DNA of 64,000 nt. Source: Candidatus Nezhaarchaeota archaeon. Lineage in GTDB: Archaea > Thermoproteota > Methanomethylicia > Nezhaarchaeales > WYZ-LMO8. Made by a program: the position numbers and the translations under genes. The notes beneath the pieces were generated by a model, which worked only from the letters and a program-made list of their open reading frames with translations, was not told the DNA's origin and ran no database searches. The number at the start of each line of letters is the position of its first letter. Position 1 is the first letter of the stretch. The stretch is from NCBI GenBank assembly GCA_025059375.1, contig JANXDO010000002.1, positions 64,966 through 128,965 of the forward strand. The letters run 5' to 3'. Positions 2 through 28,942 of the stretch are shown piece by piece.

Positions 2-202
2 GCTGGCTCTATAACCTCAATGACCTCGGGGTTGATCGTAGGGCTGCTCTGGTACGTGCTCTTATACAAGAAGGCTGCTAACCCTGTCGTGGCATGGGTG
101 CACCCAATAGTCCCTGCCTTGGCTATCTCGCTTCCACTATTCTTCATTGTTAGCTTGTTCACAAAGAAGCCTCCAAAGGAAGTTGTGGATCTGCTAGGGT
201 GA
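2..202 (+). CDS. C-terminal fragment of a membrane protein, possibly a solute transporter; its 5' end lies outside the window
   Basis: The reading frame is open from position 2 with no upstream stop. The translation is hydrophobic (…GLIVGLLWYVLLY…LPLFFIVSLF) and ends in a charged tail. Confidence 0.4.
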   Translation, partial: AGSITSMTSGLIVGLLWYVLLYKKAANPVVAWVHPIVPALAISLPLFFIVSLFTKKPPKEVVDLLG

Positions 203-210
203 GTTGAAAC

Positions 211-1773
211 GTGGTGAATTTCACGTCGTTCTTGGATTCTAATGCGATTTACTATGGTGATAAGCCAGCGCTAGTCTATCCGAAGTGTGAGGAGACAATA
301 TCGCATAGAGCTCTCTTAGATAAGGTTAACAGCTTAGCTCTTGAGCTAAAGAGCTTGGGTGTTGGGAAGGGCGATAGAGTTGTCGTGATCACTGGCAATA
401 GACCTGAGACGATTATAAGCTACTTAGCCATATGGAGGGTGGGGGCCATAGCTGTCCCAGCCAACCCTGACTTTAAGTCAGAGGAATTAACCTACATAAT
501 GAGTGATTCGGAGCCTAGAGCAGTGATAGCACTTGACTTCGTGTGCACGGACGTGCTCCCGAAGGTTAACTACGACTTCAACAAGGTTGCAATTATATCT
601 CTCAGCGGAGTAGGCAACACGTATAGCCTGAATACCATGATTAAAGCCTCCTCACCCAAAATTAGACCTGAAAACTGTTCTCTGGATGATTTATGCCAGA
701 TCCAATACACATCAGGGACTACAGGTAAGCCCAAGGGTGCTATGCTGACTCACGGCAACTGGATGGCTGCTGTTGAAGCTGAGAGGTGGGTGCTGAAGTT
801 AACAGACGAGGACGTCTACTTGGGCTTCTACCCCCACTTTCACGTTGGGGTTAGCTGGGGCATAACAGCTCTTAGGTATGGAGCGACCTTCATCATGATG
901 GAGCGCTTTAATCTGGACGAGTACCTAAGGCTAGCTAGAGATTACAAGGTGACAGTGCTCTCGGGCATGCCGCCAGTACTACATTCCTTAGTTCATGCAC
1001 CACCAGGATCAGAGGATTACTTGAAGTCAGCGAGGTGCATCATAACTGGTGGAGCGCTGACGCCTGAAGAGGTCTGGAAAAGATTTGTTGAGAGGTATCC
1101 TCACATTAAGGTTGTCAATGCGTACGGCTTGTCGGAGACTATAGTTGTGGGAACTGCTACAGCAGTTCCAGCAGGTTTCCAGCAGTTATCTAGAGGATTC
1201 AAGAGCATTGGCGCCCCAGTAGGTTATTGCGAGGTTAAGATTGTCGATGCCGAAGACCCCTCAAAGGAATTGCCGCCAGGTGAAGTGGGCGAGATAGCTC
1301 TTAGAGGACCTGGAGTAGCTAAAGGGTATTGGAGGAAGGCTGAGGAAACAAAGAAGGCCTTCCTACCCGATGGCTGGTTCTTAACCGGTGACTTAGGCTA
1401 CGTGGACCATGATGGAATCCTCTACATAACTGCCAGGAAGAAGGACGTTATAATAATGTCGGGCTGGAAGATCTACCCAGCTGAGGTTGAGAACGTACTT
1501 CTCAAGCATCCAAAGGTTTCTGAGGCTGCAGTCTTCGCTAAGTACGATGAAAGGAGGGGGGAGGTTCCAGCAGCTGCAATAGTATTGAAGCCTGGTGTAC
1601 AAGCGACAGCTGAAGAAATAATTAACTTTTGCAAGGAGAGAATGGCTGGCTATAAGGTTCCAAGATACGTCATCTTCCTTGAATCCCTACCAAAGGTTGG
1701 TGGCTGGAAGATCCTGTATAGGGTTTTAAGAGAGAAGTATGGAGGTTTTCCAGCTCAAGAAGTTCGTAGATAG
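211..1773 (+). CDS. AMP-dependent acyl-CoA synthetase/ligase with a GTG start
   Basis: It carries the AMP-binding signature YTSGTTGKPKGAML. It is 520 aa with a C-terminal ...GWKIYPAEVE... adenylation core. Confidence 0.85.
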   Translation: MVNFTSFLDSNAIYYGDKPALVYPKCEETISHRALLDKVNSLALELKSLGVGKGDRVVVITGNRPETIISYLAIWRVGAIAVPANPDFKSEELTYIMSDSEPRAVIALDFVCTDVLPKVNYDFNKVAIISLSGVGNTYSLNTMIKASSPKIRPENCSLDDLCQIQYTSGTTGKPKGAMLTHGNWMAAVEAERWVLKLTDEDVYLGFYPHFHVGVSWGITALRYGATFIMMERFNLDEYLRLARDYKVTVLSGMPPVLHSLVHAPPGSEDYLKSARCIITGGALTPEEVWKRFVERYPHIKVVNAYGLSETIVVGTATAVPAGFQQLSRGFKSIGAPVGYCEVKIVDAEDPSKELPPGEVGEIALRGPGVAKGYWRKAEETKKAFLPDGWFLTGDLGYVDHDGILYITARKKDVIIMSGWKIYPAEVENVLLKHPKVSEAAVFAKYDERRGEVPAAAIVLKPGVQATAEEIINFCKERMAGYKVPRYVIFLESLPKVGGWKILYRVLREKYGGFPAQEVRR

Positions 1774-4190: not shown

Positions 4191-5003
4191 TTGGGGAAGG
4201 TCCTCATAATAGTAGTATTAATGTCACTATTATTAGTGCCTACTCTTCATGCTCAGAACGAGTTTTTGGTTAGATTAGAGGAAAACATAGTGCTAAGCCC
4301 CCGAGATTCGTTAATGGTAGAGGTCCAAGGGAGTGATAGGGTTTTCGTAATGTACCGTCGCGATCCTAATGTCCTTGTCGAGCTAGCTGAGGCTTTTGGG
4401 GCAAGCTTTGAGGGGATTATAATCTTGAGGCTTAACATCTCTAAGTTTAGTGTGATTGATTACGACTTGAGCTTTTACTCCATTAGCCCCTACAACTTAA
4501 CGATATCCAAAATCTCAACAACAGATGGTAAGAGGGTCATAGCCTCGTATGCCTGTCCAGCGGGTGTAACTCTAAGGTTAATTATGGAGCTAACAGCGAC
4601 ACCAGCATCAGGCATTCGAGAACCGAGTATGAGCTCGATACCAGCGAGTTTCTGGCTAATTGACCCATGGAAGTTGCTGGTGTACTGCTTCTTCATATCA
4701 CTATTTGGAGCTACAGCTTTCTTAGATCTTAAAGATATGAAGCGAAAGAAGGCTGGTAGATGGAGCTTGAATGATAGTATTGCCCTAATCTTAAGGTACA
4801 TGTTTTACGCCTTCCTGCTTTCCTTCGTAGCTATAACCATATTGACCTTCGGGATGTTCATTTACTCATCACTGACTGCATTTTCGTTAGAGCTTAAGCT
4901 TGGGGGCTTATTGACGTCCTTAATCATGTTCTTAATTATAGCAATAATTTATGGGTTGGCTCGATGGAGGGGTTGGTATGAGCTTATCGATGAGGAAGAT
5001 TGA
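4191..5003 (+). CDS. secreted/membrane protein with a signal peptide, an ~150-aa extracytoplasmic domain and 3-4 C-terminal TM helices
   Basis: It has a TTG start and an N-terminal MGKVLIIVVLMSLLLVPTLHA signal-like segment. The C-terminal half is hydrophobic. Its 3' end overlaps the start of the next gene. Confidence 0.5.
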   Translation: MGKVLIIVVLMSLLLVPTLHAQNEFLVRLEENIVLSPRDSLMVEVQGSDRVFVMYRRDPNVLVELAEAFGASFEGIIILRLNISKFSVIDYDLSFYSISPYNLTISKISTTDGKRVIASYACPAGVTLRLIMELTATPASGIREPSMSSIPASFWLIDPWKLLVYCFFISLFGATAFLDLKDMKRKKAGRWSLNDSIALILRYMFYAFLLSFVAITILTFGMFIYSSLTAFSLELKLGGLLTSLIMFLIIAIIYGLARWRGWYELIDEED

Positions 5004-7731
5004 GGAGGAGAAGCCTTGGTGGCTTACTAGACCAAAGCTTCGAGCACTCTTATCACTACCATTACACTTAGCTAATAGAGATTATAGGCGATGGAAGAAT
5101 GCTAGGTTGACACCAAAGAAGCTTAAGAAGAGGCTTCACGAGCTTGACAAAAAGTTCCCGAAGAAGAGGGAGGACCTAATTGGAAGGGATAAAGAATTCC
5201 AAGCGATAATGACGGCCATAGCTTACCACGTGATTGAAGATCCTGCTGTGAGAGGATTGTTTAAGGGGGCTCCACCACCAAAGTTCTTCATACTGAAGGG
5301 CTCAACCGGCACTGGGAAATCCATGCTTGCTGAGATTTGTCTTAGAGAGGCTGTAGTTCACGGACTCAGCTTAGGGGTCAATGTCCAACCGATAGTGGTC
5401 AACGCTGATGAAATATTTCACCCACTCTACGGTCAGTCTTTGAGGAACTTGGCAGCAATATTCAAGAGGGCTAAAGACACGCCAAGCGTCATCTTCTTTG
5501 ATGAGTTTCATAGCATAGGCATGAAGGTCGAGAGACCTATGTACGGAGCTGATAGGGAGGACGTGAGGGTTCAAGACGCCTTCATAGAGTACTTAAACAA
5601 GATACTAGACACAAACGAGAGGGTGATCGTGATAGCCGCCACAAATAAGTTTGAAGCGATTAGAGAGGATATTAGGAGGAGAGCCTTTGTCTTAGACTTA
5701 GACCAGAACATTACAAGAGACATGCTACTGGCTGTCTTAAAGGCTGAGTTAAACAAGTATGGATGGACTTATTTAAATCCCGAGGAAGTGATGTCCATCC
5801 TTGAAAAGTCTGTTAGCGCTTATAGACAGACTCAACTCACACCATTTGACATCATAGATGCATGCAACAAGGTTAGATCTAGGAAAGTCGAGCCCGTGAG
5901 GGAAAAGCTATTTAAGAGACTTGGACTTTTACGCGAGGAAGAGTTTTCATACAAAGTCACTATAGATGATTTTAAGCTCGTGGCTAGGGAGCTTAGAGGG
6001 TACGTAGAGCAGGAGAAGAGCACTGAGGTCTTGAGCTCAGTGTTAAAGATAAAGCCGGCTGTGAGCTACAGGGACATTGGGGGACTCTTCGGGATTAAGG
6101 AGAAGATATTCAAGATAATATCGCTAAGCCTCAAGCCTGAGCTTGCAAGCAAACTTAACTGGGTTCCTCCAAAAGGCTTCCTACTTTGGGGGGAGCCTGG
6201 TTGTGGTAAGACCTACTTATCGAAGGCTGTGGCTAAGGAGAATGATGCTACCTTCTTTTACGTGCCAGCAGCCCAACTACTAATTAATGCTAAATGGGTT
6301 GGAGAGCCTGAGAAGAACATAAAGGATCTATTTCAGCTTGCTAGGAGACATGCTCCCAGTATAATATTCTTCGATGAATTCGACGTAATAGCTGGTAAAA
6401 GGAAGGGGGATCCAGTTAGCGATAGACTTACAGCTCAGATACTTACTGAGCTTGATGGTCTGCAGCCCCTTGAAAATGTGATTGTAATAGCCGCAACTAA
6501 CAGGCTTGACGTGATAGATGAGGCGGTTCTAAACAGGTTTGAGCCTTATATAATAGAGGTACCATTACCGAGAAATGATGAGGAAAGGCTTGATGTTATA
6601 AGAGTTCACCTTAGACAATATCTGCCCCACCTCCACGATGAAGTCACTCCTGAGAGGGTCTTGAGCATAATTAAGAGGTTTAGGGTTGTATCACCACGCG
6701 TCGTGGCTGAGGTCATTAAGGAGGCTAATAGGCTTAGAAGTCAGGAGGTTGTGGCAGCTAGCGAATGCGTTAAGGCCCTCTCCATAGGTGATAAGGTGAG
6801 GTTGACTGAGGTAATGGAGATGTATAAAGAGGATCTTGAGAGAATTAGAGAGCTAGTAGGCTCAACGGACATTGAGGTGCTCTCTAAAGTAACTCCGGAG
6901 GTGTATAAGGTAAGGCTGTATCACTTTGAGAAGGCGGCTGAACTTCTAGAACATGAAGTTGACAAGGAGTTAATGGATGCTCAGGAGAGTATGGTAACTG
7001 AGGGGCCTGGTGTAGCGCTGGGATTAGCTACTGATCCGCAGGGTAGGAGGGGTATCCTGTTGATAGTGGAGTGCTCTGTGAAGAAAGGTTCAGGTAAGGT
7101 GCACGTTACGGGCGCTGCAAAGTCGGTTACGATAGCTCCAATGACCTCAGTTGAGGACGTTAGTGTTATTGAGAGTGCTCAGAATGCTGTAGACTACGTA
7201 AAGATGTACGTGGAGGAGAAACTAGGCATAGACTTAAGCGACTACGATTTTAGATTTCAGATTGTAAGTCCTCTCGAAGGAATTCCTGGAGGGGGAGTCT
7301 CTGGTCCAAGCCTAGGATTGACCTTTAGCGTGGCGGCCATATCAGAGTTAGCGGGTCTATCATCAAGCCAATCAGTTGTCATGACTGGTAAGAGCGATAT
7401 AAAGGGTAAGGTTGGACCAGTTGGAGGTTTAGGTTGGAGAGGTGCTGGTAAGATCTTAGCGGCCATAAAGACTAGGAGAATCAAGATTAAGAAGTTCATA
7501 ATGCCTAAGTGGAATTATGAGAATGCTAGAGATGAAGTAAAGGTTCTAGAGGAGGCTGGCATTACGGTAATACCGGTTGAGAGGCAGGTAGAGGCTTGGC
7601 TCCACGCGCTGGATGTAAGTGAGGAGGAAATGCTTGAGAAGATAGCAAAGAATATGAGTGCTAAACAAGCAAACCGGGCAAAGGGGCCTCTTGAGCAGAT
7701 AGGTGAAGATGAAGCCCCACGATCCTATTAG
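4951..7731 (+). CDS. tandem AAA+ ATPase fused to a C-terminal Lon-type (S16) Ser-Lys protease domain
   Basis: Walker A-1 GSTGTGKS (~nt 5299) pairs with Walker B FFDEFHS. Walker A-2 GEPGCGKT (~nt 6190) pairs with Walker B IIFFDEFD and sensor IAATNRLD…NRFE. The C-terminal GGVSGPSLGLT (Ser codon 7309-7311) and VGPVGGLGWRGAGKILAA (Lys codon 7450-7452) match the Lon catalytic dyad context. The start is uncertain (ATG at 4951, 4978 or 4990). Confidence 0.7.
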   Translation: MGWLDGGVGMSLSMRKIEEEKPWWLTRPKLRALLSLPLHLANRDYRRWKNARLTPKKLKKRLHELDKKFPKKREDLIGRDKEFQAIMTAIAYHVIEDPAVRGLFKGAPPPKFFILKGSTGTGKSMLAEICLREAVVHGLSLGVNVQPIVVNADEIFHPLYGQSLRNLAAIFKRAKDTPSVIFFDEFHSIGMKVERPMYGADREDVRVQDAFIEYLNKILDTNERVIVIAATNKFEAIREDIRRRAFVLDLDQNITRDMLLAVLKAELNKYGWTYLNPEEVMSILEKSVSAYRQTQLTPFDIIDACNKVRSRKVEPVREKLFKRLGLLREEEFSYKVTIDDFKLVARELRGYVEQEKSTEVLSSVLKIKPAVSYRDIGGLFGIKEKIFKIISLSLKPELASKLNWVPPKGFLLWGEPGCGKTYLSKAVAKENDATFFYVPAAQLLINAKWVGEPEKNIKDLFQLARRHAPSIIFFDEFDVIAGKRKGDPVSDRLTAQILTELDGLQPLENVIVIAATNRLDVIDEAVLNRFEPYIIEVPLPRNDEERLDVIRVHLRQYLPHLHDEVTPERVLSIIKRFRVVSPRVVAEVIKEANRLRSQEVVAASECVKALSIGDKVRLTEVMEMYKEDLERIRELVGSTDIEVLSKVTPEVYKVRLYHFEKAAELLEHEVDKELMDAQESMVTEGPGVALGLATDPQGRRGILLIVECSVKKGSGKVHVTGAAKSVTIAPMTSVEDVSVIESAQNAVDYVKMYVEEKLGIDLSDYDFRFQIVSPLEGIPGGGVSGPSLGLTFSVAAISELAGLSSSQSVVMTGKSDIKGKVGPVGGLGWRGAGKILAAIKTRRIKIKKFIMPKWNYENARDEVKVLEEAGITVIPVERQVEAWLHALDVSEEEMLEKIAKNMSAKQANRAKGPLEQIGEDEAPRSY

Positions 7732-8515
7732 GATCGTAGCCCAGCGCTAGTGCTATGAATTGCGAGACGTGAAGTATGGGTATCGTCCTCGTCAATTCTT
7801 CAAGCTGTCTTAACTCGTACTGCGTCTTATCGAGAATCAGCATGCAGGCAGGACACATTGTTAGAATCATGTCAGCCCCACTCTCAATAATGCTCGTTAT
7901 TTTTCTCTGTGAGAGCTCAAGCATTATGTGACCAATCCACTTAGCTGCTGGCGCACCACAACAACTATGCTTCTCTTCATAGTCAACTACTTCAGAATTG
8001 AATGCTAAGGCCACGTCTTCAAGTATGTCTTCGCCCTCCTCCCCCCTTAAAGCCCTCCCATGGAGGGCATAGTTATAGTGGCAGCCAACATGCACTGCCA
8101 CCTTCACTTTGCTCATATCCCTCTTTACTTTTCTAGCTAGCTCGTGTCTACTCTGCCATAGTAGTTCAGCTACATGTAGACAACGTGCTCTCACTCCATA
8201 TCTTCTTCTAAACTCTTCAGAGCTCAAAGCCTTATTTAAGGCGAGGTAGCAACCGTTACACGATACGACTATGTAGTCAGGATTTGACATGAGCTTGGCC
8301 ACGTTAAAGCAAACGATTGCGTTCATTTGCTCGGCTTTTGCTATGCCGAGGAGCCCTATGGGTAGCCCGCAGCACAACATGCTGATAGGAAGCTTAGCGT
8401 CGATGCTTAAGAGCCTTAATAGCTCAAGGGTTGACCTCGCTATCCCGGGATATACGTTGATTGACATGCAGCCTGGGTAGTAAGTTACATGGCCCTTAAT
8501 CTCTTTTAGTACCAA
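7661..8515 (-). CDS. hdrB: heterodisulfide reductase subunit B-like (two CCG domains)
   Basis: The CCG-domain Cys patterns YYPGC…CCGLP…CNGC and HVGCH…CCGAP…CPAC are present. It lies adjacent to HdrC. Confidence 0.75.
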   Translation of the reverse strand: MVLKEIKGHVTYYPGCMSINVYPGIARSTLELLRLLSIDAKLPISMLCCGLPIGLLGIAKAEQMNAIVCFNVAKLMSNPDYIVVSCNGCYLALNKALSSEEFRRRYGVRARCLHVAELLWQSRHELARKVKRDMSKVKVAVHVGCHYNYALHGRALRGEEGEDILEDVALAFNSEVVDYEEKHSCCGAPAAKWIGHIMLELSQRKITSIIESGADMILTMCPACMLILDKTQYELRQLEELTRTIPILHVSQFIALALGYDPNRIVGLHLHLSAQEAPLPGLLV

Positions 8516-8915
8516 TGCTCATCACCCTTCTAAGTCTATCCTCAAAGCTTATGGCTTTCATGAAGGCCTTAAGCTCGTCTTTGAATTCTTCAGAAAGCTT
8601 TGGGATGTTGAGTTCTGACTCAGCCTTAAACTCCTTCACCTCATTGCTTACCGGCGGGACTATGACACCCTCATTGAATATAGTCTCAGCGAGGTCCATG
8701 TATAGCTCAACAATCCTCCTTTCACCTCGCTCTTCTAGGACTCGTTCTCTAAGTTCACCTATTATCTCTGGAATCTTTACTGAATTTGGACATCGTGCTT
8801 CACACGTGTGGCATCTCAGGCATAGCCATATGTCACTACCATCCACTGGAACGTCTTGCTTGATGCTGTATACGATGAGCCTCGGGTTAAAGCTCTTAGT
8901 TATCCTCGAGACCAC
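8496..8915 (-). CDS. hdrC: heterodisulfide reductase subunit C-like (4Fe-4S)
   Basis: It carries CLRCHTCEARCP plus a second Cys motif. Its size and position next to HdrB fit. Confidence 0.7.
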   Translation of the reverse strand: MVSRITKSFNPRLIVYSIKQDVPVDGSDIWLCLRCHTCEARCPNSVKIPEIIGELRERVLEERGERRIVELYMDLAETIFNEGVIVPPVSNEVKEFKAESELNIPKLSEEFKDELKAFMKAISFEDRLRRVMSIGTKRD

Positions 8916-9007
8916 GCAAGCTGATGTACAGCTGCCACACTGAATACACTTCTTAGACTCTGAAAACAGTAGGTTTATAATAGTTTGACACCTCCTAAGC
9001 TATTCTC

Positions 9008-9358
9008 GTGAGCTTGGAGCTCAAGCTGTTGTTGGATAGATTCCATGACTTTGAGAAGGCTAAGCGCTTAGGATCCTTGAGTGGAGAGTACCTGAAGGAG
9101 GCCTCTACTATATACTTGAGTAGAGATGATGCAGAGGTACTCGGAGTATCTGAGGGGGACGTTGTTGAAGTGGTATCAGGAAACCGCTTAATTAGGGTTC
9201 GAGTTAGGGTTGATGAAGGTATCAAGAAGGGTTTCGCGTTTATGCCCCCCAGCCCAATGTCAATTGCCCTATTTGATTCGAGTAGGCAGCCATTAATCGT
9301 TAAGGTCTCAAGGTCCACGGGAGAGCCTACGGAGTTACTCACAATTCTACCTCCTTAA
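9008..9358 (+). CDS. fwdD: formylmethanofuran dehydrogenase subunit D-like molybdopterin-dinucleotide-binding domain protein
   Basis: VSEGDVVEVVSGNRLIRVRVRVDEGIKKGFAFMP is typical of the MopB C-terminal/FwdD domain. The antisense ORF 8995..9342 is S/T-rich low-complexity and was judged spurious. Confidence 0.6.
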   Translation: MSLELKLLLDRFHDFEKAKRLGSLSGEYLKEASTIYLSRDDAEVLGVSEGDVVEVVSGNRLIRVRVRVDEGIKKGFAFMPPSPMSIALFDSSRQPLIVKVSRSTGEPTELLTILPP

Positions 9359-10654
9359 TTTTGATAGTACCTCATCAATCCTACCCCTCTCAAAAGCGAC
9401 CCTCCCATGGACTGTGTTCACTAGGCTCTTAAGCCTCTCAATAGCATTAACCGCCTTATTGAACCCCCTAGACATAAGGGGTTTGGGCAGTGGCGGTGGA
9501 GGGGTAATCTCAACCCTCTCAACTTTAATAGCTCTGTAGTACACGGCTGGCTTAGGAGACTTATAGTTAGTGAGCATTCTCTTAAAGTACTCGTAGCTCA
9601 TGTTGAACCACAACACACTTGAATCCTCAAACCTTAAGTCACTCCTCGCTACTCTAATGGCATTAACTGGGCAAGCTTTCTCGCATGCTCCACAGTAAAT
9701 GCAGTAGTCCTTGACGAATAACATCTTGTCTAGTGATGGGGGTTTAGCGACGTACACTACATTAGTGGGGCATATGTTTATGCAATTCTTACAGCCAGAC
9801 GGATCACAGTTGTTTGGTTGAACCATGTATACGTCCCCCTTAAATTGCTTCTCGACCTTTATTGCCCCTACAGGACATAGAGTGCATAAACCGCACCAAA
9901 CGCATTTTTCTTCGTCTACATCTATTGATCCATCGACTTCAGGTTCACATACTTCTCTAGGAGCTGCTTCCTTACACTCAACTTTGATCGCCTTTACTGG
10001 GCATATCTTTTCACAGAGTCCGCAGTAATCGCATTTACTCTCATCAACCAACACGGCTACTCCTAGCTTGAAGTGTGGAGGTTTGGATTGAGTCCACTCT
10101 ATCTTTATTGCATCGCAAAGAAGCTCACATAGACCACAGTAGCAACACTTTCCAAGGTCTATGGTTATCGTGCCTATTCCCCCCACCTTGCCCTCCTCAA
10201 GATACTTCACAAGCTTGCTCTTCTTCTTGATGTTGATGTTGACCCTTATTGCTCTCCTCGGGCATATCTTCTCACAGAATAGGCATGGAATGCACTTTTC
10301 GCGATCTACCACCATGTTTCCCTTGACCCTCGGATGAGGGAAGTCTGCCTTAAGGGTGAGCTTTAAAGCTTTAGAGGGGCAAACAGATGAGCATAGGGGG
10401 CAAGCGATACACTTTGTCTCATCTATAATTATATATGGAGCCTCCACCCTCCCTGACGCTATGTCCTTAACTGGACCCATTGATATTGCCTTGACTGGAC
10501 AGACGATCTCACAGAGCCCACATCCAAAGCACTTATCAGTGTGGTATGAAAGCTTCTTCTCTAATACTGGAGCTAGCCACCTATAATTGATGGTCTTGCC
10601 CTCCAACTCTAACTTAGATTGTGGCTTCACAATCTTCAAGAGCTTACACCTCAA
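9347..10654 (-). CDS. polyferredoxin with eight [4Fe-4S] motifs (FwdF/MvhB-like)
   Basis: Eight CxxCxxCxxxCP-type motifs are present (CFGCGLCEIVCP, CIACPLCSSVCP, CIPCLFCEKICP, CDYCGLCEKICP, CIYCGACEKACP and others). Confidence 0.8.
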   Translation of the reverse strand: MRCKLLKIVKPQSKLELEGKTINYRWLAPVLEKKLSYHTDKCFGCGLCEIVCPVKAISMGPVKDIASGRVEAPYIIIDETKCIACPLCSSVCPSKALKLTLKADFPHPRVKGNMVVDREKCIPCLFCEKICPRRAIRVNINIKKKSKLVKYLEEGKVGGIGTITIDLGKCCYCGLCELLCDAIKIEWTQSKPPHFKLGVAVLVDESKCDYCGLCEKICPVKAIKVECKEAAPREVCEPEVDGSIDVDEEKCVWCGLCTLCPVGAIKVEKQFKGDVYMVQPNNCDPSGCKNCINICPTNVVYVAKPPSLDKMLFVKDYCIYCGACEKACPVNAIRVARSDLRFEDSSVLWFNMSYEYFKRMLTNYKSPKPAVYYRAIKVERVEITPPPPLPKPLMSRGFNKAVNAIERLKSLVNTVHGRVAFERGRIDEVLSKLRR

Positions 10655-13028
10655 ATTCCGAGCCTATTGGCCCCAGCTTAGTTACCTTCTCAACGAACAT
10701 AGTTACTAGTTCAGCTATTCTCTTGCCCTCTGATGCCGAGGCTCCATCGATCATCAGCCTTTCAGGGCTTATACCAACACTCTCTAAAAGCTTTTTAAGA
10801 GCTTTAACCCTCTCGTTAGCCTTTAATCTACCAACTCTATAGTGGCAGTCCTGCTCGTAGCAGCCCAAAATCATGACCCCATCAGCTCCAAGCTTAAGTG
10901 CTTCAAGAATGTGGTCTGGAGATACTCTTGCACTACATGGGACCCTTATGACCCTGACGTTCGTTGGGTATGCAATTTTGTTTAAGCCAGCATTGTCGGC
11001 GGCTGCATAGCTACACCACATGCATGTGAAGGCCACTATTAAGGGATACTCGCTCTTACTTAGTAGGAGGGCCTTCAGCATAGCTGATATCTGCTCATTA
11101 GTTAAGTAGCCAGGTGGTATTAGGGCCCCAGCTGGACATGCAGCTAAGCAGGAACCACAACCTCTACACGCAACGTCATAGACCTCAATTTCACCCCTAC
11201 CCGCTTTCAAGGCTCCAAATGGACATGCTCCAACACAGTTGAAGCATAGCTTACACCTTGACTTATCTATGGTGGGGGCGTAGACCTCAATCTCTACCTT
11301 GCCCCTACCTAGGAATTCAGCCACTCTCGACGCAGCTAAGCCAGCTTGAGATACAGTCTCCGTTATGTCCTTAGGGCCAGTGCACGCGCCAGCAACATAG
11401 ATTCCCTTACTAAAGGTATCGGCTGGATTGAGTTTAAGGTGGTATTCAGCTAGGAAACCATCCTCACTTAAGTGGATGCCCATCATTGATGCCAGTTCCC
11501 TAATACCATCGGGAGGCTCCATACCTACAGCCAGGACCACGAGGTCGAAGTCCTCCTCCTTAAACTTGCCGTCCATGATGTCCTCGTAGAAAACCCTAAG
11601 CTTACCGTCCTTAGTCCTCCTGATCTCACCGACCCTGCTCTTCACGAAGTTGACCCCCATGTCCATAGCGCGCCTATAAGCCTCTTCAGATAGTTTTCCG
11701 GAGGCCCTGACGTCAATGTAGAAGATTGCTATGTGGGTCTCGGGTACAGTTAGCTTCGTTTGAATTGCTTGCTTAATTGCGTAGTTGCAGCAGACCCTAC
11801 TACAGTATACATGGCCGATTCTATCGCTTCTACTACCAACACATTGGATGAAAGCGATCCTCTTCGGAGGGGTTCCATCTGATGGCCTGACAATCCTACC
11901 TCTCGTGGGTCCTGTGCTATTGAGCATTCTTTCGTACTCAGGACCCGTCACAACGTCGAGGAACCTGCCATAACCATACTCCTCCATCCCTCTAGGATCA
12001 AATGGCCTAAACCCTACAGCAACTATTATGGCTCCAACCTTAAACTTCATTACCTTGTCCTCATCCCTAAAGTTTATGGCCTTAGGCTCGCAGACGCCCA
12101 AGCAGGAGTAGCAGCCAATGCAGCTCTTTATGTCGATATATGGGGCGTGCGGAACGCTTTCAGGTGATGGTTTGACTATAGCGCTTCTAAATCCAATGCC
12201 ATAGTCGTACTCGTTGGGGATCTTTATTGGACAAACTTCCAAGCACTTATTACACCCGGTACAGAGCTTTTCATCAATATACCTCGCCCTCCTAAGGATC
12301 TCGACGTCATAACTGCCCGGCATGCCTCTAACAGATCTAACTTCACTTAATGTTAGGACCTCTATGTTTGGGTGGTTGTAGGCTTTTGAGAGTTGGGGGC
12401 CAAGGACACATATGCTGCAATCGATAGTTGGGAAGACCTTATCCCACTTTGCCATGTGACCGCCTATGAAGCCTTCCTTCTCCACTAAGTACACCTTGAA
12501 GCCCATGTCAGCCAGTAGTAGAGCAGCCGTGACTCCAGCAACGCCTCCGCCTATCACCATGACGCTCTTCTCGGCATGCATGCTTACAGTCCTCGCTGGA
12601 ATAGCATGTGGAGCAGCAGCCAATGCCATCTCTATGAGGTCCATTGCCTTAACTGTGGCTCTTTCAGGGTCGTGATAGTGAACCCACGCACATTGTTCTC
12701 GAATGTTAACTATCTCCACGTAACCTCGATTTAACCCGACCTCCTCAGCTGTCTTCTTAAATAGCTCTCCGTGGAGCGATGGAGTGCAGCAAGCAACTAT
12801 TAACCTCGAAGCTTTCTCCTCCACTACAGTCTCCTTTATCCTCCTTAACCCATCATCACTACAGCAGTGTTCATGTTCCTTCACTACCACGTTACTTCTC
12901 CCTGAAAAGTGTTTGAGAAGCCTCTCGACATCTACCACCCCAGCGATATTGGTTCCACACCTACAGACGAAGAGAACCAACTTGCCCTCGCCACTTAGAT
13001 CTGATGAAGCGCTGCTCGACTGCGACAT
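10644..13028 (-). CDS. hdrA: heterodisulfide reductase subunit A with a fused C-terminal MvhD-like domain
   Basis: The FAD/NAD Rossmann motif VMVIGGGVAGVTAALLLA, multiple 4Fe-4S motifs and the HdrA thioredoxin-like N-terminus are present. The C-terminal …FTCMWCSYAAADNAG…VPCSARV…ILGCYEQDCHYR matches MvhD. Confidence 0.8.
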   Translation of the reverse strand: MSQSSSASSDLSGEGKLVLFVCRCGTNIAGVVDVERLLKHFSGRSNVVVKEHEHCCSDDGLRRIKETVVEEKASRLIVACCTPSLHGELFKKTAEEVGLNRGYVEIVNIREQCAWVHYHDPERATVKAMDLIEMALAAAPHAIPARTVSMHAEKSVMVIGGGVAGVTAALLLADMGFKVYLVEKEGFIGGHMAKWDKVFPTIDCSICVLGPQLSKAYNHPNIEVLTLSEVRSVRGMPGSYDVEILRRARYIDEKLCTGCNKCLEVCPIKIPNEYDYGIGFRSAIVKPSPESVPHAPYIDIKSCIGCYSCLGVCEPKAINFRDEDKVMKFKVGAIIVAVGFRPFDPRGMEEYGYGRFLDVVTGPEYERMLNSTGPTRGRIVRPSDGTPPKRIAFIQCVGSRSDRIGHVYCSRVCCNYAIKQAIQTKLTVPETHIAIFYIDVRASGKLSEEAYRRAMDMGVNFVKSRVGEIRRTKDGKLRVFYEDIMDGKFKEEDFDLVVLAVGMEPPDGIRELASMMGIHLSEDGFLAEYHLKLNPADTFSKGIYVAGACTGPKDITETVSQAGLAASRVAEFLGRGKVEIEVYAPTIDKSRCKLCFNCVGACPFGALKAGRGEIEVYDVACRGCGSCLAACPAGALIPPGYLTNEQISAMLKALLLSKSEYPLIVAFTCMWCSYAAADNAGLNKIAYPTNVRVIRVPCSARVSPDHILEALKLGADGVMILGCYEQDCHYRVGRLKANERVKALKKLLESVGISPERLMIDGASASEGKRIAELVTMFVEKVTKLGPIGSEFEV

Positions 13029-18001: not shown

Positions 18002-18883
18002 TTAATGCGTTTTAGTTATGAAGACATCGGCACACACGTAGGTCTTTAATGGAGATACCGACCTCACTACCCTACTCGATGTCATGAGCCACCTCACATT
18101 TAAGCTGTCAAGAACCTTCGATAGCCTACACTTTAGGTATTCCTCCACATCACTTCCACGATGTGCGGTATCGTAGTAGTGAATGTATCCTTCAAGCTTT
18201 AACGCCTCGATAGCCTTAGCCAAGTGGTCAATGGCATGCTCGGGTGAAGGCATCAAAACTCTATTAGCAATGCCCTTAAGCCTATACGTCTCAATAACTT
18301 GGGAGGCATCGCCAAATATTGGTATTACTTTATCCTCTACACGATTTAGCTTTATGTTCTCCACCATAAGGTTGTAAGCACTAGGGTTTACATCTATGGA
18401 GTAAATCTTAACGTCTGGAACCTTCTTCGCTATGACTATTGAGAATGGCCCCACCCCTGCAAACATGTTAATTATGACTTCTCCCGGCTTAACCATGCTT
18501 GCTATTCTCAGTCTTTCATATTGAAGCCTAGAGGTAAAGAACACCTTAGATATATCGACTTTAAACACACAACCGCTCTCCCTATGTATTGTTTCAAGTC
18601 CTCCACTACCTGCTAAGATCTCATAGCTATGGACTCTCTCAGGGTCCTTTGCCGGTGACGTTCTCCTTACGATGAGTCTAACCTTGGGCTTTAAGCTATT
18701 TAGTATCGCTTCAGCAAGCTTAAACCTATATGTCTCCAGCTTACTAGATAGATTCAAGATAGCTATGTCTCCTATTAGTTCAAAGCCGCTGGGGACTGAA
18801 TCGAGAAGGTGTGGTGGAACTATCTCCTTCGCCAGTCTCCTCAGTAAACCTTCTCTAGGCATGCTTTTGGTCTTAGCCTCCAA
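18002..18883 (-). CDS. class I SAM-dependent tRNA methyltransferase of the Trm5/TYW2 family
   Basis: INMFAGVGPFSIVIAKK…IDVNPSAY matches the Trm5/TYW2 motif. It overlaps the upstream radical SAM gene by 11 nt. Confidence 0.65.
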   Translation of the reverse strand: MEAKTKSMPREGLLRRLAKEIVPPHLLDSVPSGFELIGDIAILNLSSKLETYRFKLAEAILNSLKPKVRLIVRRTSPAKDPERVHSYEILAGSGGLETIHRESGCVFKVDISKVFFTSRLQYERLRIASMVKPGEVIINMFAGVGPFSIVIAKKVPDVKIYSIDVNPSAYNLMVENIKLNRVEDKVIPIFGDASQVIETYRLKGIANRVLMPSPEHAIDHLAKAIEALKLEGYIHYYDTAHRGSDVEEYLKCRLSKVLDSLNVRWLMTSSRVVRSVSPLKTYVCADVFITKTH

Positions 18884-20345
18884 CCTTAGCTAGATAAGGT
18901 ATGCTCAATGCCCTCTCAACAATGGGCCTGTGAATGCTATTGTAAGTACAGAAGGGTCTTATAGTTCCATCAGGCAAGGCGTAGTGTATGCAGCACCTCT
19001 CAACTCTCTCAAGGTCAAAGTTGTAAGGATCCATGAAGTGCATACACCCTAAGAGCACCATCCTCCTCATCAATTGACCTAAAGCATCATACGAACCTTT
19101 AATGAATACACTTAATAAGCTCCTCCTCAGCTTGCCCTTGATGTTGCGGCTTGCTAGGAGTAGCTTCAAATAAGCTCTAAGCCTCTTGCCCTTAGATGCT
19201 AGATTATGAACCTCCCAAAAGTCGCTTGCAAGCTTGTCGACATCAGCATACTTGGTTATAGGAGTTATGCTGCCATCATCCTCTACTAAGAAAAATGTAG
19301 CTACACCACAGTGTGGATGAGCTGTGAACTCCGGGTACTTCCTTCCCTTAATGGCTCCAACAGCCCTAGCCATTGCTACCGGCCAAGGGACGGGCCTAAA
19401 GTCTAACACCCTAATTGCTCCTCCAGTTTGCTCCTCGCACAGCTTCATGAAGTCCGGTATCGTTATTCTCATTTTCTCCCTCTCCTCCCTGTTTATTCTC
19501 CCGGTTATGGATACAGGCTGAACATTAATTCCCCTAACGACATCACAGTTCTTGGCTGCGAACCTTATGATGTCGCCCACCTGATGATCGTTTACCCCCT
19601 TAACCAAGGTTACTACGAGAACTATGGAGTCATGGCCCAGCTTTCGGGCATTCTCTACGACTTTAAACTTTATGTTCGTCAGAGGGACACCTCTAGTCTT
19701 AATGTAAATGTCATCTGTTAAACCATCGAACTGAAGATATACTGTTGACATTCCAGCGTCAAGCAGGCTCTTATAGAAGTTTATGTCCTTAGCAAGGAGG
19801 ATCCCATTACTGTTTACCTCAACGTGTCTAAAGCCCTCCTTCTTAGCCATGGAAATTAGGTCGGGCAGGTCCCTTCGAAGTGTTGGCTCTCCACCTGAAT
19901 ATTGAAGTGCTGCTGGAGGTAGAGGTTTCAGCTCCCTAAGGTTCTTAAGCATCCGTCCTACCTGCTCCTGAGTCGGCTCATATAGGTACCCAATAGCCCC
20001 GGCATGAGCAAAACATATTGGGCAATTAAGGTTGCACCTATTCGTTACATCAATTATAGCGAGGACTGTGCATGTCCTATGCCTTTCACATAAACCACAA
20101 TCATATGGACAGCCTCTTTCACTCCTCCTTTGTGGGTTCTTCACCCCTTCCCCCACGATCTCCCACTTCTCTGCTTCACGGTAAAGCTCATAGTCGCCCC
20201 AGTACACATCAGTGAAGTCTCCATGTTGAGGACAAGACTTAGAAATATAAACGCGATTATTGTCTTCGTACACTATAGCATCCACAACTTGCAAGCACTC
20301 TGGGCACAAACTCTTCGTCTTCTTTATTAGCTCCAATAGCATCAC
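18873..20345 (-). CDS. radical SAM enzyme with an N-terminal Cys-rich ribbon (paralog A); family uncertain
   Basis: The N-terminus has CPEC…CPQHG, then CPYDCGLCERH, then the canonical CNLNCPIC radical SAM motif. It is 490 aa and is paralogous to 26823..28181. Confidence 0.7.
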   Translation of the reverse strand: MMLLELIKKTKSLCPECLQVVDAIVYEDNNRVYISKSCPQHGDFTDVYWGDYELYREAEKWEIVGEGVKNPQRRSERGCPYDCGLCERHRTCTVLAIIDVTNRCNLNCPICFAHAGAIGYLYEPTQEQVGRMLKNLRELKPLPPAALQYSGGEPTLRRDLPDLISMAKKEGFRHVEVNSNGILLAKDINFYKSLLDAGMSTVYLQFDGLTDDIYIKTRGVPLTNIKFKVVENARKLGHDSIVLVVTLVKGVNDHQVGDIIRFAAKNCDVVRGINVQPVSITGRINREEREKMRITIPDFMKLCEEQTGGAIRVLDFRPVPWPVAMARAVGAIKGRKYPEFTAHPHCGVATFFLVEDDGSITPITKYADVDKLASDFWEVHNLASKGKRLRAYLKLLLASRNIKGKLRRSLLSVFIKGSYDALGQLMRRMVLLGCMHFMDPYNFDLERVERCCIHYALPDGTIRPFCTYNSIHRPIVERALSIPYLAKVGG

Positions 20346-20615
20346 CGAGGACCTTCTAGCAGTTAAAGCTGTTTTGCCAATATTTCACTATAAATTTTAT
20401 CTGAGAAATTGCGAGATGCGAAACTCTTAAATAGCAAGGTTAAAGCTCCAGCGACTCATTAACCACTCTGTTTAAGGTGCTGGTTAAGGAGGCTTGCAAG
20501 GTCCTATTGACTGAGGTGTTTAAACCTGGACTTGAGGGATGTAACTGACCTGAAAGCCAAGGATTTAACTTACTCTTTTATTACACGTCATCTGTTCTTA
20601 CGATACGGTGATTGG

Positions 20616-20849
20616 ATGAGGATAATAACAGTAAAGATGCCTGAAGCGTATCTAAGGGATCTAGATGAGCTAGTTAAGTCTGGAGCATACCCCTCAAGAA
20701 GTGAGGCTATAAGAGCTGCCGTGAAGGAGCTTTTAGGGAAGGAGCTGTATAGATCAATTGATGACAGAGCCTTAAAGAAAAAGCTTCAGAGTGAATTTAA
20801 GCATTCGTCGAAGCACTACGGCTTTGGCTGCCGACCACCCGATCACTGA
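20616..20849 (+). CDS. ribbon-helix-helix (CopG/NikR-like) transcriptional regulator
   Basis: MRIITVKMPEAYLRDLDELVKSGAYPSRSEAIRAAVKELL is a typical RHH. I chose the internal ATG at 20616 over the longer ORF. Confidence 0.55.
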   Translation: MRIITVKMPEAYLRDLDELVKSGAYPSRSEAIRAAVKELLGKELYRSIDDRALKKKLQSEFKHSSKHYGFGCRPPDH

Positions 20850-20916
20850 CAGTGCTCGATCGTGAAGAGTTAAGCTATATTAAGGTACCCCTATCTACCT
20901 CTATCCCGGATGAGGT

Positions 20917-21726
20917 ATGCATCCTCAGAGCATATTTTCCATGCTCTACACGCCCGGCAGAAACTTAGGGATACTTTACATAGAGGCTTCTGCTGGGCTA
21001 AGCATTAAAGAGCTTACAAGTATACTTAGAGAGCTTGATAAGTATGGTGCAATAATTTTTAGAGGCTTATATCACGAAGAACGGGTTAATGAAGCTAGAA
21101 AGACGTACTTGTGCATGGTCTGCGATCTGACCTCCTCTAAGCACCCACTTGAGGAGGTAGCATCATCTATTAATAAATTGCCAGGTATTAAGAGCGTTGA
21201 AGTGGTAAAACCAGAGACACCAGGCTTCATAGTTGATGAAAGGCATTACCCCCTAATAGTGGTTGATGAAAGAGCTTTAATATTTAGGATAGAGACGTTC
21301 AACGTCATGCTTCTTGGCATAAGACAAAAGTGGGGGGCTACAGGTCAAGTCTTCCTGTACTACTTAGGTTATGAGGGAGGTATAGGAGCAGCCAAGTTCT
21401 ACAAGAGGGTTTCCGACTTACCGCCGAATGAAGCGATAAAAGCTGCGCTTAAAGTGGCAACAGCTCATGGGCTTGGCAAGTTTGAAGTAATAGATCTTGA
21501 CATGGAAAGACCATACGTAGTAGTCAGAGTTTATGATTTGTTCGAGTGCATACCCATGAAGGGTAAAAGCGATCAACCATTTAGTGAATTCTATAGAGGA
21601 CTATTATGTGGAACGCTAAGCGAACTACTTGGAGTAAAGCTTAGAGCTGAGGAAAGAGCTTGCGTAGCCAAGGGAGATCCTTACTGCGAGTTCGTGTTGA
21701 TGAAGGAGGAGGTTGCGGAAGCTTAA
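20917..21726 (+). CDS. ACT-like + V4R-domain protein (paralog A)
   Basis: It carries the V4R signature GQVFLYYLGYEGG and the C-terminal CVAKGDPYCEF. Confidence 0.55.
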   Translation: MHPQSIFSMLYTPGRNLGILYIEASAGLSIKELTSILRELDKYGAIIFRGLYHEERVNEARKTYLCMVCDLTSSKHPLEEVASSINKLPGIKSVEVVKPETPGFIVDERHYPLIVVDERALIFRIETFNVMLLGIRQKWGATGQVFLYYLGYEGGIGAAKFYKRVSDLPPNEAIKAALKVATAHGLGKFEVIDLDMERPYVVVRVYDLFECIPMKGKSDQPFSEFYRGLLCGTLSELLGVKLRAEERACVAKGDPYCEFVLMKEEVAEA

Positions 21727-26822: not shown

Positions 26823-28181
26823 TCATGTCCTATACAATTTCTTACCATTGACTGACGTGATGTTGTAGAGACAGAAGGGTATGAGATTACCTTTCTCCCT
26901 TAATTCGTGGACGCAACACTTTACAACCCTCTTCAAGTCTATCGTCCAAACATCTTGGGCAAAGTGGCATCCAATGCTGAAAAAGCCTTCAGGCTTTAAG
27001 TGTTCTAAGAGGAACCTTAAAGGGGATCCCATAGCTTGAGGGTTACAGTTCAATACTAAGCTCTTTGAAGTGTTTAGCTCGCAGGCTATTGCGTTAAGAA
27101 GCTCGTCAAAGTCAACAAACCTGTTTTTAAGCGAGTACCTGTCTATGAGGTGCTCGATGTCGGCTAGCCTATTTATGACTTCAACCTTACCATCGTCCTT
27201 ATAGTAGGCGTATACAAGTGCTGAGCAGCGAGGGTCAGAGCAAGGTACTGGGATGAAGTCGAGAGCCTTCACTGCCCCTTTGCTCTGCCTTTCAATCAAT
27301 ACTTGAATGTCACTCACAGTCACCCTATCGAGAGGGTTAAAGATTGATTTGGGGTACCTACCAAGAGCAGTAAATGGCTGGAAGTTCACCCCAATGGTCT
27401 TCCTTGAAATTGAGTACCTAACTATGTCCCACAAGCAGTGATCGTTAACCCCCTTGATCACGGTCACGGCTAACGTTACGGCTAGCCCCGCCTTAATGCA
27501 ATTACTTAAGGCTCTCTCCTTGACTCTAGTAAGGTCGGCCCCCCTGATCTTGAGGTGTACGCTTGGGTCTAGGCCATCGAATTGAAGGTAAATACCGCTT
27601 AGTCCTGCATCAGCTAATTCCCTTGCAAGTTGAGGATCTTTTGCTAATTTAATACCATTTGTGTCGATCTCCATGAACTTAAAGCCTATGTCCTTAGCCA
27701 TCGAAATTATTTCAGACAAATCCTTCCGAAGAGTTGGTTCTCCACCCGAGAACTGGATTGCTGTTGGTCCCCCCTCGCAGCTGAGCAACTCCTTAAGCAT
27801 CTCGCCGATATCATCAAGTGTGGGCTCCCACCTTGATTCTCTACTAGAACCTGCCAAGCAAACTGGGCAAATTAGGTTGCATGAGTCTGTCACCTCAACT
27901 ATTGCTAGGCATGTGTGTTGCTCATGACTTGGACAAAGCCCGCAGTCGTAGGGACATCCTCTATACGTCTTATCTATGTGAGGTTTAGCTGGAGAGCCTC
28001 TCCTCGAAAATCTGAGAGCTCTCTTATACAGACCACTATCGCTCCATAGAAGCGACCTGAAGAATCCATGATTTTTACAGAACTTCTCCATGTAGACTTT
28101 GTATTCTTCAGTTACTATCTTAGCTGGTATTATGGATAAACACGTTGGACATAAACTCTTAGTTTCATCCAATAGCTCCAT
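26823..28181 (-). CDS. radical SAM enzyme with an N-terminal Cys-rich ribbon (paralog B)
   Basis: It carries CPTC…CKNHG, then CPYDCGLCPSH, then CNLICPVC. It is 452 aa and is collinear with paralog A (…YLQFDGL…GVNDH…). Confidence 0.7.
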   Translation of the reverse strand: MELLDETKSLCPTCLSIIPAKIVTEEYKVYMEKFCKNHGFFRSLLWSDSGLYKRALRFSRRGSPAKPHIDKTYRGCPYDCGLCPSHEQHTCLAIVEVTDSCNLICPVCLAGSSRESRWEPTLDDIGEMLKELLSCEGGPTAIQFSGGEPTLRKDLSEIISMAKDIGFKFMEIDTNGIKLAKDPQLARELADAGLSGIYLQFDGLDPSVHLKIRGADLTRVKERALSNCIKAGLAVTLAVTVIKGVNDHCLWDIVRYSISRKTIGVNFQPFTALGRYPKSIFNPLDRVTVSDIQVLIERQSKGAVKALDFIPVPCSDPRCSALVYAYYKDDGKVEVINRLADIEHLIDRYSLKNRFVDFDELLNAIACELNTSKSLVLNCNPQAMGSPLRFLLEHLKPEGFFSIGCHFAQDVWTIDLKRVVKCCVHELREKGNLIPFCLYNITSVNGKKLYRT

Positions 28182-28216
28182 TGCGCCAAGCTATAGCTAA
28201 CTCAATATTTAAGCTT

Positions 28217-28942
28217 TTACTTGCGTTTAAGACTGACTATGCGGCATAGGAAAATACACGAGGAGTCACCTTTAGCTTCACACTTGACCTCCTCCACCTT
28301 TACCTCTCTGTCTAAATAAAAGCTTAAAACTCCAGTTAGGTAGCCCCTCGTAAATATACAGTTCACTCTGTCTTGTGAGTTCTTCTTGTACCTTACCTCA
28401 AAGTTATCCTTAGCCTCAATTTCTAGAATGTTATTTGAATCATCGAGCCTCTTGACCTCAAACCTCCCCCATCCCACAGATAGTAGTGTGGCTAAGTGAA
28501 TCTTTATCTTAGTGATCGCATTTAAGTCTCCAAGCTTTTCACTAAGCCATTTAGCTGTGCTTTTACCACCCTCTCTGGCTAAGTACCATAAGAAAGCTTC
28601 ACCGGCAGATCCAAATTGTTTAATAATTCCATCTACCATGCCCACTAGGGTCTTAAGCCTCAGGATCACAACATCCTCAGTGTGAGAAGTCGTTACTGGA
28701 AAGCCAAAAGTCTCATACACATATCCGGGCTTATCTGGGCTGAAGAAAGCGACATCCAGCACTTCGGGCATAGACTTGAGCTTAGCGATAACATCCTCAA
28801 CAGTAGTAGTCGCATTGGTGAAGTCAACTATTATAAAGGCGTTGCCTTCATCCCCCAAGCTATATGCAATTATGTTCCTGATTAGTATGTTATGTTCGCC
28901 TAAAACTGACGTTATTTTCCCCAAGATTGATGGTCTCGCCAA
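28217..28942 (-). CDS. ACT-like + V4R-domain protein (paralog B)
   Basis: It carries GEAFLWYLAREGG and the C-terminal CEAKGDSSCIF. Confidence 0.55.
   Translation of the reverse strand: MARPSILGKITSVLGEHNILIRNIIAYSLGDEGNAFIIVDFTNATTTVEDVIAKLKSMPEVLDVAFFSPDKPGYVYETFGFPVTTSHTEDVVILRLKTLVGMVDGIIKQFGSAGEAFLWYLAREGGKSTAKWLSEKLGDLNAITKIKIHLATLLSVGWGRFEVKRLDDSNNILEIEAKDNFEVRYKKNSQDRVNCIFTRGYLTGVLSFYLDREVKVEEVKCEAKGDSSCIFLCRIVSLKRK

Follow-up and report, generated by a model that had tools for sequence, protein, structure and literature searches.

In Cdc48/VAT, substrates are threaded from the D1 to the D2 ATPase ring and can be fed to a protease docked beneath D2. In FtsH and LonB, the AAA ring lies against the membrane and the protease is distal to it. 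The roles of the latter two have been described (PMC4343526); the same source names only two ATP-dependent proteases for archaea, the proteasome and LonB, and FtsH is absent from this domain. The classification literature on the Lon family contains subfamilies A, B, C and BA only (PMC9569914), and an AAA-AAA-Lon_C arrangement was not among the S16 architectures surveyed in 2008. Here we describe a two-gene locus from a Candidatus Nezhaarchaeota archaeon, located in a 64,000-nucleotide stretch of contig JANXDO010000002.1 (hereafter the window). The larger gene encodes a protein with two AAA modules and a C-terminal Lon-type domain (the protease), and the gene upstream of it encodes a membrane protein (the partner). 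Together they are best explained as a membrane-anchored, active, ATP-dependent and processive serine-lysine protease, a reading to which we assign a probability of roughly 0.7 based on sequence and model comparisons.

Domain architecture and catalytic residues

The open reading frame (ORF) of the protease was mechanically delimited at 4951–7731 (+), starting at ATG 4951 and encoding 926 aa. The start at ATG 4978 was favoured because of the homologs and a conserved Shine-Dalgarno (SD)-like GGAGGGG element in front of it. Residue numbers refer to the 926-aa ORF unless the numbering of the 917-aa product is stated. The gene contained the following features:

4978–7731 (+), protease gene, 917 aa from ATG 4978; protein P0001 (917 aa) is 100% identical
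4978–5250 (+), basic helical N-terminal region, residues 10–100; W23-W24 and G78-R79 invariant; no PF02359 or PF02933 match
5251–5955 (+), D1 AAA module (Pfam); best PDB match VAT D1
5299–5322 (+), D1 Walker A, GSTGTGKS, with K123
5500–5505 (+), D1 Walker B, D184-E185; D1 also has pore loop Y160-G161 and R242-R243-R244
6136–6690 (+), D2 AAA module (Pfam); best PDB match VAT/p97 D2
6190–6213 (+), D2 Walker A, GEPGCGKT, with K420
6373–6378 (+), D2 Walker B, D475-E476; D2 also has pore loop KWVG (W449-G451) and sensor-1 N517
6694–6990 (+), family-specific helical spacer, approximately 100 aa long, joining the D2 lid to the protease domain
6949–7593 (+), Lon S16 protease domain (Pfam PF05362, Lon_C), residues 667–881
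7309–7311 (+), putative catalytic S787 in GPSLG, from the phmmer alignment to AfLonB S509
7450–7452 (+), putative catalytic K834 in GAGKILAA, from the phmmer alignment to AfLonB K552

The original prediction, made from the letters of the sequence, had called two AAA+ modules followed by a Lon-type domain. All of the motifs it quoted (GSTGTGKS/FFDEF, GEPGCGKT/FFDEFD, NRFE, GPSLG and GGLGWRGAGKILAA) were found in the protease, and the call was confirmed with Pfam. Two stretches matched PF00004 (193 bits in total), and the C-terminal domain matched the Lon_C profile with 62.1 bits against a cutoff of 21.1, covering profile positions 8–197 of 205. A Cdc48 N-domain, a LON N-domain and an M41 domain were not detected in the protease with Pfam. 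The protease itself contained no transmembrane (TM)-like segment, the maximum Kyte-Doolittle average over 19 residues being 1.26. The last approximately 30 residues were disordered and not conserved.

The best PDB sequence matches for the ATPase modules were Thermoplasma VAT and p97/Cdc48. When D1 was searched alone, the top alignment was to VAT D1 (residues 215–341), and D2 (residues ~337–556) aligned to VAT D2, with VAT/p97 D2 as the best match. An AlphaFold2 (AF2) monomer model, computed with 72 homologs as input, had a mean predicted local distance difference test score (pLDDT) of 81. In this model (917 numbering), a helical region (1–95) was followed by D1 with an alpha/beta core and lid, D2 with its lid, the helices of the spacer (573–670) and an alpha/beta protease domain (679–880). 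Foldseek matched the model to p97/Cdc48 chains in the PDB over approximately 630 aligned columns (E 2e-29). Based on these matches of D1, D2 and the model, the tandem AAA part is clearly derived from Cdc48/VAT. The exclusion of Cdc48 in the original prediction held: the N domain is missing and the CDC48 model stayed below its cutoff, but the ATPase tandem is not unrelated to Cdc48. The description of the D1 P-loop as atypical was overstated, since it follows the normal GxxGxGK[ST] pattern and has VAT D1 as its best match. The position of the Cdc48 N domain is occupied in the protease by the N-terminal helical region of approximately 90 aa, whose net charge is +12 (first 92 residues) and where, we propose, the membrane and the partner dock.

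In a phmmer search of the PDB with the C-terminal domain alone, the protease domain of A. fulgidus LonB was the first match (E 2e-13), followed by LonA structures. By this alignment the Ser-Lys dyad is S787/K834, corresponding to AfLonB S509/K552, which agrees with the placement that had been suggested from the motifs. Conservation was counted in 78 full-length family members recovered from the loci described below. Invariant in all 78 were K123, Y160-G161, D184/E185 and R242–244 in D1, K420, D475/E476, N517 and R529 (within LNRFE) in D2, and P786-S787 and K834 in the Lon domain, where the MTG motif was also invariant or near-invariant. The residue before the catalytic Ser is Pro in LonA and Asp in LonB (PMC9569914); P786 (GPS) therefore indicates an A-type catalytic centre. 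The helical spacer was kept across the protease family.

The membrane partner and its fusion in Asgard archaea

The gene directly upstream encoded a membrane protein with the following features:

4191–5003 (+), membrane partner gene, 270 aa, TTG start, stop TGA at 5001–5003
partner residues 1–22 (+), signal-like helix (hydropathy and model)
partner residues ~24–136 (+), all-beta sandwich ectodomain of approximately 110 residues, with sequons at N82 and N102
partner residues ~159–186, 193–230 and 237–259 (+), three TM helices, with a K/R-rich loop after the first
partner C-terminus (+), acidic cytoplasmic tail, RWRGWYELIDEED
4647–5000 (+), three-TM anchor module with acidic tail, partner residues 153–270, homologous to the fused N-terminal extension of Asgard proteases

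The N-terminal signal-like helix and the three C-terminal TM helices were in line with the earlier description of this product. The topology was consistent, with the K/R-rich loop and the C-terminal tail on the cytoplasmic side and the sequons within the ectodomain. The partner had no match in Pfam, NCBIfam or PADLOC, and the 11 homologs that were found were all unnamed. Among close homologs the C-terminal tail was invariant. For an identical NCBI protein, P0121 (229 aa), the annotated start is an internal Met, so that the signal-peptide region (window 4191–4316) is missing; since this region is kept in homologs, the deposited gene model is probably 5'-truncated.

In a scan with one genome per species, relatives of the protease were detected in at least 119 genomes, and 79 loci were fetched. 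The lineages comprised Nezhaarchaeota, Methanomethylicia, Hecatellales, metagenome-assembled genomes (MAGs) of Sulfolobales/Desulfurococcaceae type and many Bathyarchaeia, the latter in two paralogous clades (A and B). They further included Odin-, Hod-, Prometh-, Heimdall-, Mars- and Brockarchaeota, a Nitrososphaera MAG and one complete genome labelled 'Thermoproteati archaeon'. The closest relatives were from Nezhaarchaeota MAGs, the identity of the protease tracked taxonomy, and most genomes carried one gene. Two genomes of Bathyarchaeia type carried two paralogs of the module, one from each clade (~58% and ~38% identity to the window protein): L039 with L066 (CAZAGP01) and L042 with L064 (DATKOK01). 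Contigs with the archaeal module were also present in bins labelled as bacterial, namely L009 (GCA_035624825.1, Dormibacteraeota), L042/L064 (Methylomirabilota, DATKOK01) and L053 (Acidiferrales). Since L009 also encodes TFIIB, SUI1 and an actin-family protein, it is an archaeal contig mis-binned into a bacterial genome.

The two-gene module was present in approximately 70 species genomes of Nezhaarchaeota, Methanomethylicia, Bathyarchaeia, Sulfolobales-type MAGs, Marsarchaeota, Brockarchaeota and Heimdallarchaeota. At approximately 68 of the 73 loci with an intact 5' flank, a gene on the same strand was located directly upstream of the protease, with a gap of −29 to +79 nt. It was of two types. 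The first encoded a signal or TM segment, an ectodomain of approximately 150 aa and two to three TM helices, and the second, found in Bathyarchaeia clade A, encoded 124–127 aa with three TM helices only. In Brockarchaeota, a gene with the architecture of the partner was placed divergently. The synteny of the upstream gene spanned two clades with approximately 35% identity. Neighbours other than the partner were not conserved between the Nezhaarchaeota, Methanomethylicia and Bathyarchaeia contigs compared.

At three loci, from Odin-, Hod- and Promethearchaeota, no upstream gene was present. There, the protease was approximately 1010 aa long and began with a hydrophobic extension, in which a crude hydropathy count gave approximately four TM helices. 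In an hhalign comparison (alignment A6), partner residues 153–269 aligned with residues 2–122 of the Odinarchaeota protein P0045 (probability 98.3%, E 2.2e-14). The 124-aa Bathyarchaeia partner also matched P0045 with BLASTP (E 7e-15). The Asgard extension ended in a partner-like YELIDEE directly before KPWW of the protease. Because the same module thus occurs split in most lineages and fused in these Asgard archaea (a Rosetta-stone relation), an anchor-type physical association of the partner with the protease is most likely, and by far the most economical reading of the sequences. These results support the earlier suggestion of a membrane-tethered two-ring unfoldase-protease, for which conservation of the membrane partner in related genomes had been proposed as a check.

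The gene junction

Two further features were located where the genes meet:

4966–4972 (+), SD-like GGAGGGG within the partner codons W-R-G, 5 nt before ATG 4978
4978–5003 (+), 26 nt shared out of frame by the end of the partner gene and the start of the protease gene

An overlap of 26–53 nt had been noted in the original prediction; it is real, and amounts to 26 nt with the favoured start. The same 26-nt geometry was present in roughly 30 clade-A species loci, and on the Nezhaarchaeota, Methanomethylicia and Bathyarchaeia contigs the upstream membrane gene always ended 26 nt inside the protease gene. The element GGAG[GA]GG was kept 5–6 nt before the ATG or TTG start in clade-A loci, and we propose it as the translational-coupling signal. 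In clade B, the two genes were separate and did not overlap, lying +1 to +79 nt apart.

If one nucleotide were skipped at GAT-T-GAG (4998–5004), the two frames would be joined as ...ELIDEED-EEE-KPWW, a spacing equal to that of the Asgard proteins (...ELIDEE-LYGF-KPWW). Since a one-nucleotide deletion at the stop is sufficient for this, the split and fused states differ by a simple indel. From the separate genes of clade B we infer that the two-gene state is ancestral and the Asgard fusion derived. The same skip, together with the strongly conserved overlap geometry, could be read as programmed +1 frameshifting at the partner stop, by which TACK (Thaumarchaeota, Aigarchaeota, Crenarchaeota and Korarchaeota) lineages would produce some fused TM-AAA-AAA-Lon polypeptide. 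However, both the last sense codon (GAT, GAG, GAA or GAC) and the stop (TGA, TAA or TAG) vary and no conserved slippery site was present, which makes programmed frameshifting very unlikely. The conserved SD-like element at a canonical distance from the start and the non-overlapping clade-B genes also argue against it, and an evolutionary one-nucleotide indel accounts for the fused genes equally well.

A model of a membrane-anchored protease

In the anchored-protease model, the large subunit would assemble into a hexamer with three tiers, a D1 AAA ring, a D2 AAA ring and a Lon S16 ring. The small subunit would contribute three TM helices per protomer, so that six modules tether the barrel, and in some lineages an extracellular beta-sandwich. 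With the N-terminus of the protease facing the membrane, the D1 ring would face it as well and the Lon ring would lie beyond D2; the partner would hold the D1 face of the barrel at the cytoplasmic side of the membrane. Because the basic N-terminal helices of the protease and the acidic tail of the partner are electrostatically complementary, we propose that contact is made between these very basic helices and either the acidic C-terminal tail or the basic loop of the partner. Substrates would enter at the D1 pore next to the membrane, be moved on hand over hand by the aromatic loops of both rings (Y160-G161 and KWVG) and pass directly into the Lon chamber, where they would be cut at S787/K834. 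The likeliest clients would be membrane or membrane-proximal proteins, and the complex would then correspond in function to FtsH of bacteria and LonB of archaea. Our confidence in any specific class of substrates is much lower than that in the anchored protease.

Several observations weigh against this model. The AF2 model of the protease is a monomer only, with a predicted template modelling score (pTM) of 0.52. The model of the partner has low confidence (pLDDT 62), and with Foldseek it matched nothing in the PDB at E<=1e-3, only generic Ig-like sandwiches being found. The ectodomain is missing from the partners of Bathyarchaeia clade A and from the Asgard archaea. Anchoring is not universal in the wider superfamily, since distant AAA-AAA-Lon clusters, described below, appear soluble. 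The proposed type of client is drawn purely by analogy. Finally, 46 residues lie between Ser and Lys (offset 47) in all 70 members matched by the pattern, whereas a separation of 42 residues is reported to be constant in LonA and LonB (PMC9569914). In the AfLonB alignment, the difference is explained by a GWRG-type insertion of 4 aa between the GG turn and K834.

This unusual spacing, together with the lack of a hydrophobic segment in the protease itself, would also suit a soluble Cdc48-like unfoldase in which the Lon-like domain is non-proteolytic and has a structural or chaperone-like role, as in the ATPase-dead LonC, and in which the synteny with a membrane gene has no physical meaning. We consider this highly improbable. 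The dyad, the Pro before the Ser and the MTG motif are conserved across the 78 sequences as given above, the TM module and the protease form one protein in three Asgard lineages, and the synteny has been kept between clades that share only approximately 35% identity.

A second possibility is that the partner is not a passive anchor but a regulated substrate or sensor, comparable to an anti-sigma factor or to RseA and FtsH substrates. Its ectodomain would sense a signal in the envelope, and the AAA-Lon protein would extract and degrade the partner or a client bound to it. Such a role would be consistent with the extracellular beta-sandwich, which carries a conserved Cys and sequons in many lineages, and with the cytoplasm-exposed C-terminal tail, whose invariance among close homologs is degron-like. 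The invariance of the tail is, however, partly explained by dual coding, since its codons also encode the protease start and the SD-like element. The ectodomain is dispensable, being absent from the 124-aa Bathyarchaeia partners and the Asgard fusions, and an FtsH-like N-terminal fusion of the three-TM segment to the protease in three Asgard lineages is hard to square with a substrate that is consumed. A substrate or sensor role therefore appears doubtful.

A more far-reaching version of the anchored protease is a 'dislocase-protease', in which a hexameric ring of 18 partner TM helices, with the extracellular beta-sandwich in some lineages, forms or guards a membrane conduit. Misfolded membrane proteins, or even extracytoplasmic ones, would be drawn out of or across the membrane by the Cdc48-type double ring and degraded in the Lon chamber. 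We regard this as unlikely. If true, Asgard and TACK archaea would have in a single machine what eukaryotes achieve by combining Cdc48-driven endoplasmic-reticulum-associated degradation with the proteasome, and the module might bear on how Cdc48-dependent membrane extraction arose.

Genomic context

The window represented an ordinary archaeal chromosome, with genes for an acyl-CoA ligase, a THUMP-SPOUT methyltransferase, Hdr-like proteins, RadA, AOR and an F420 ligase. General scans of the 64-kb window identified no gene for LonB, the proteasome or Cdc48, and a scan of positions 1–64000 at the Rfam gathering threshold returned 0 RNA families, not even a tRNA. On the minus strand at 7661–13028, an HdrB-like (CCG), polyferredoxin and HdrA/FlpD-like set converged on the protease gene; as mechanically listed, the HdrB-like ORF (7661–8515, minus) and the 3' end of the protease gene (ending at 7731) shared 71 nt tail-to-tail. 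At both 18873–21726 and 26823–28942, a radical-SAM enzyme whose N-terminal zinc ribbon is of HMPTM type was paired with a V4R-domain protein; the two pairs are paralogous and flank a GT2 glycosyltransferase and a molybdopterin oxidoreductase. In Bathyarchaeia (L005/L006, 9370–13600), genes for a site-2 protease (M50), TatA and a rhomboid protein were located just downstream of the module. These genes may form a neighbourhood for membrane proteostasis or secretion, which the other lineages examined did not show.

An anti-virus defence or abortive-infection role, also raised in the original prediction, would place the module with Lon-like BrxL or AAA effector systems. Lon-like domains and AAA ATPases do occur in some defence systems, and PADLOC returned matches to its IetA and TRIP13 AAA models. 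These matches reflect generic AAA similarity, however; PADLOC gave no match to a Lon-type defence model and none for the partner. A tblastn search with the C-terminal 362 aa of the protease found nothing in phage or plasmid collections. The surrounding genes have housekeeping functions and differ from lineage to lineage, and the divergence of the mostly single-copy gene follows taxonomy. The defence reading was rejected on the grounds of the generic PADLOC matches and the lack of phage and plasmid matches, and we consider it extremely unlikely.

Family size and wider relatives

The family-specific C-terminal 362 aa were used as the query in an exhaustive HMMER search of 1.84 billion cluster representatives. 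At E<=1e-3, 667 matches were obtained (generic Lon domains); only 33 had E<=1e-10 and 9 had E<=1e-30. The stronger matches were mostly proteins of approximately 900–1070 aa, matched at residues ~570–910. By these counts the protease family is small and deep. Six distant AAA-AAA-Lon clusters (P0142, P0145, P0162, P0164, P0157 and P0150) shared 27–33% identity with the protease in the C-terminal region. Their D2 had a canonical RPGRFD, their N-termini were long and hydrophilic and contained no TM segment, and some had a degenerate D1 Walker B (FMDSAQ, FLDRAD). These clusters may be soluble cousins of the anchored family.

The relatives were annotated at their sources only as 'AAA family ATPase', 'hypothetical protein', 'SpoVK/Ycf46/Vps4' or 'transitional ER ATPase'. 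In line with the original prediction, which did not recognize the architecture as a described archaeal protease family, no publication or curated family for a tandem-AAA Lon protease was found in the searchable literature, while an arCOG, InterPro or MEROPS entry or a paper beyond it is still possible. If active, the protease would be a third type of archaeal energy-dependent protease, with a Cdc48/VAT-type double-ring unfoldase joined directly to a Lon chamber and tethered by a dedicated three-TM module. It offers a natural experiment in which a two-ring classical AAA motor is coupled in cis to a non-proteasomal protease, and in which the split-versus-fused gene pair cleanly defines the anchor. 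It is also a candidate for membrane-protein quality control in lineages near the eukaryotic ancestor.

Comparison with known systems

No NCBIfam model reached its cutoff on the protease, and all stayed far below it:

CDC48 (TIGR01243), 225 bits, cutoff 802.65
PAN, 218 bits, cutoff 500
FtsH (TIGR01241), 149 bits, cutoff 600
lon (TIGR00763), 70 bits, cutoff 608
LonB (TIGR00764), 62 bits, cutoff 517

The protease resembles Cdc48/VAT in its D1-D2 tandem of classical AAA modules with aromatic pore loops in both rings. Unlike Cdc48, it lacks the double-psi-barrel/beta-clam N domain (PF02359, PF02933), which was present in the true Cdc48 matches P0097–P0120, and its D2 has LNRFE instead of the arginine-finger motif RPGRFD. 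While Cdc48/VAT feeds a docked 20S proteasome, the protease described here has a Lon S16 domain fused in cis and is predicted to be tethered to the membrane.

FtsH is resembled most by the fused Asgard form, in which N-terminal TM helices are followed by classical AAA and a C-terminal protease; some partners of the split form add an extracytoplasmic domain. FtsH has one AAA ring and an M41 zinc metalloprotease, whereas two AAA rings and a serine-lysine S16 protease are combined here. The anchor of FtsH is in cis; the TM module of the present family is in cis only in the Asgard homologs and is a separate, translationally coupled protein in the window and in most lineages.

Archaeal LonB (MEROPS S16.005) is likewise a membrane-associated ATP-dependent Ser-Lys protease, and its P domain is the best PDB match of the C-terminal domain. 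In LonB, a TM segment is inserted between Walker A and B of a single Lon-type AAA+ module, whereas the protease has two classical AAA modules without an internal TM segment and obtains its putative anchor from a separate or N-terminally fused three-TM module. The two also differ in the residue before the catalytic Ser, which is Asp in LonB and Pro here, and in the Ser-Lys spacing, which is 4 residues longer here. With LonA and LonBA (the 'hybrid' subfamily of B. subtilis, PMC9569914), the protease shares the A-type catalytic centre with Pro before Ser, and LonBA is also N-terminally membrane-anchored. The protease differs from both in lacking a LON N-domain, in having AAA modules that are not of Lon type and in the tandem arrangement of its ATPases. 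A defining feature of the Lon family is a single Lon-type AAA+ module directly before the P domain, whereas the protease has two AAA modules of the Cdc48/PAN/FtsH clade and a spacer of approximately 100 aa.

Judged by the defining features of these groups, the protease is not LonA, LonB, LonC, Cdc48 or FtsH. For LonA and archaeal LonB, the missing LON N-domain, the lack of a TM insert within the AAA module and the Pro before Ser bear out the distinction drawn in the original prediction. It does carry the S16 domain and the predicted Ser-Lys dyad that characterize the Lon family (MEROPS S16, Pfam Lon_C), and it is most aptly classed as a new subtype of the Lon family whose double ATPase is of Cdc48 type.

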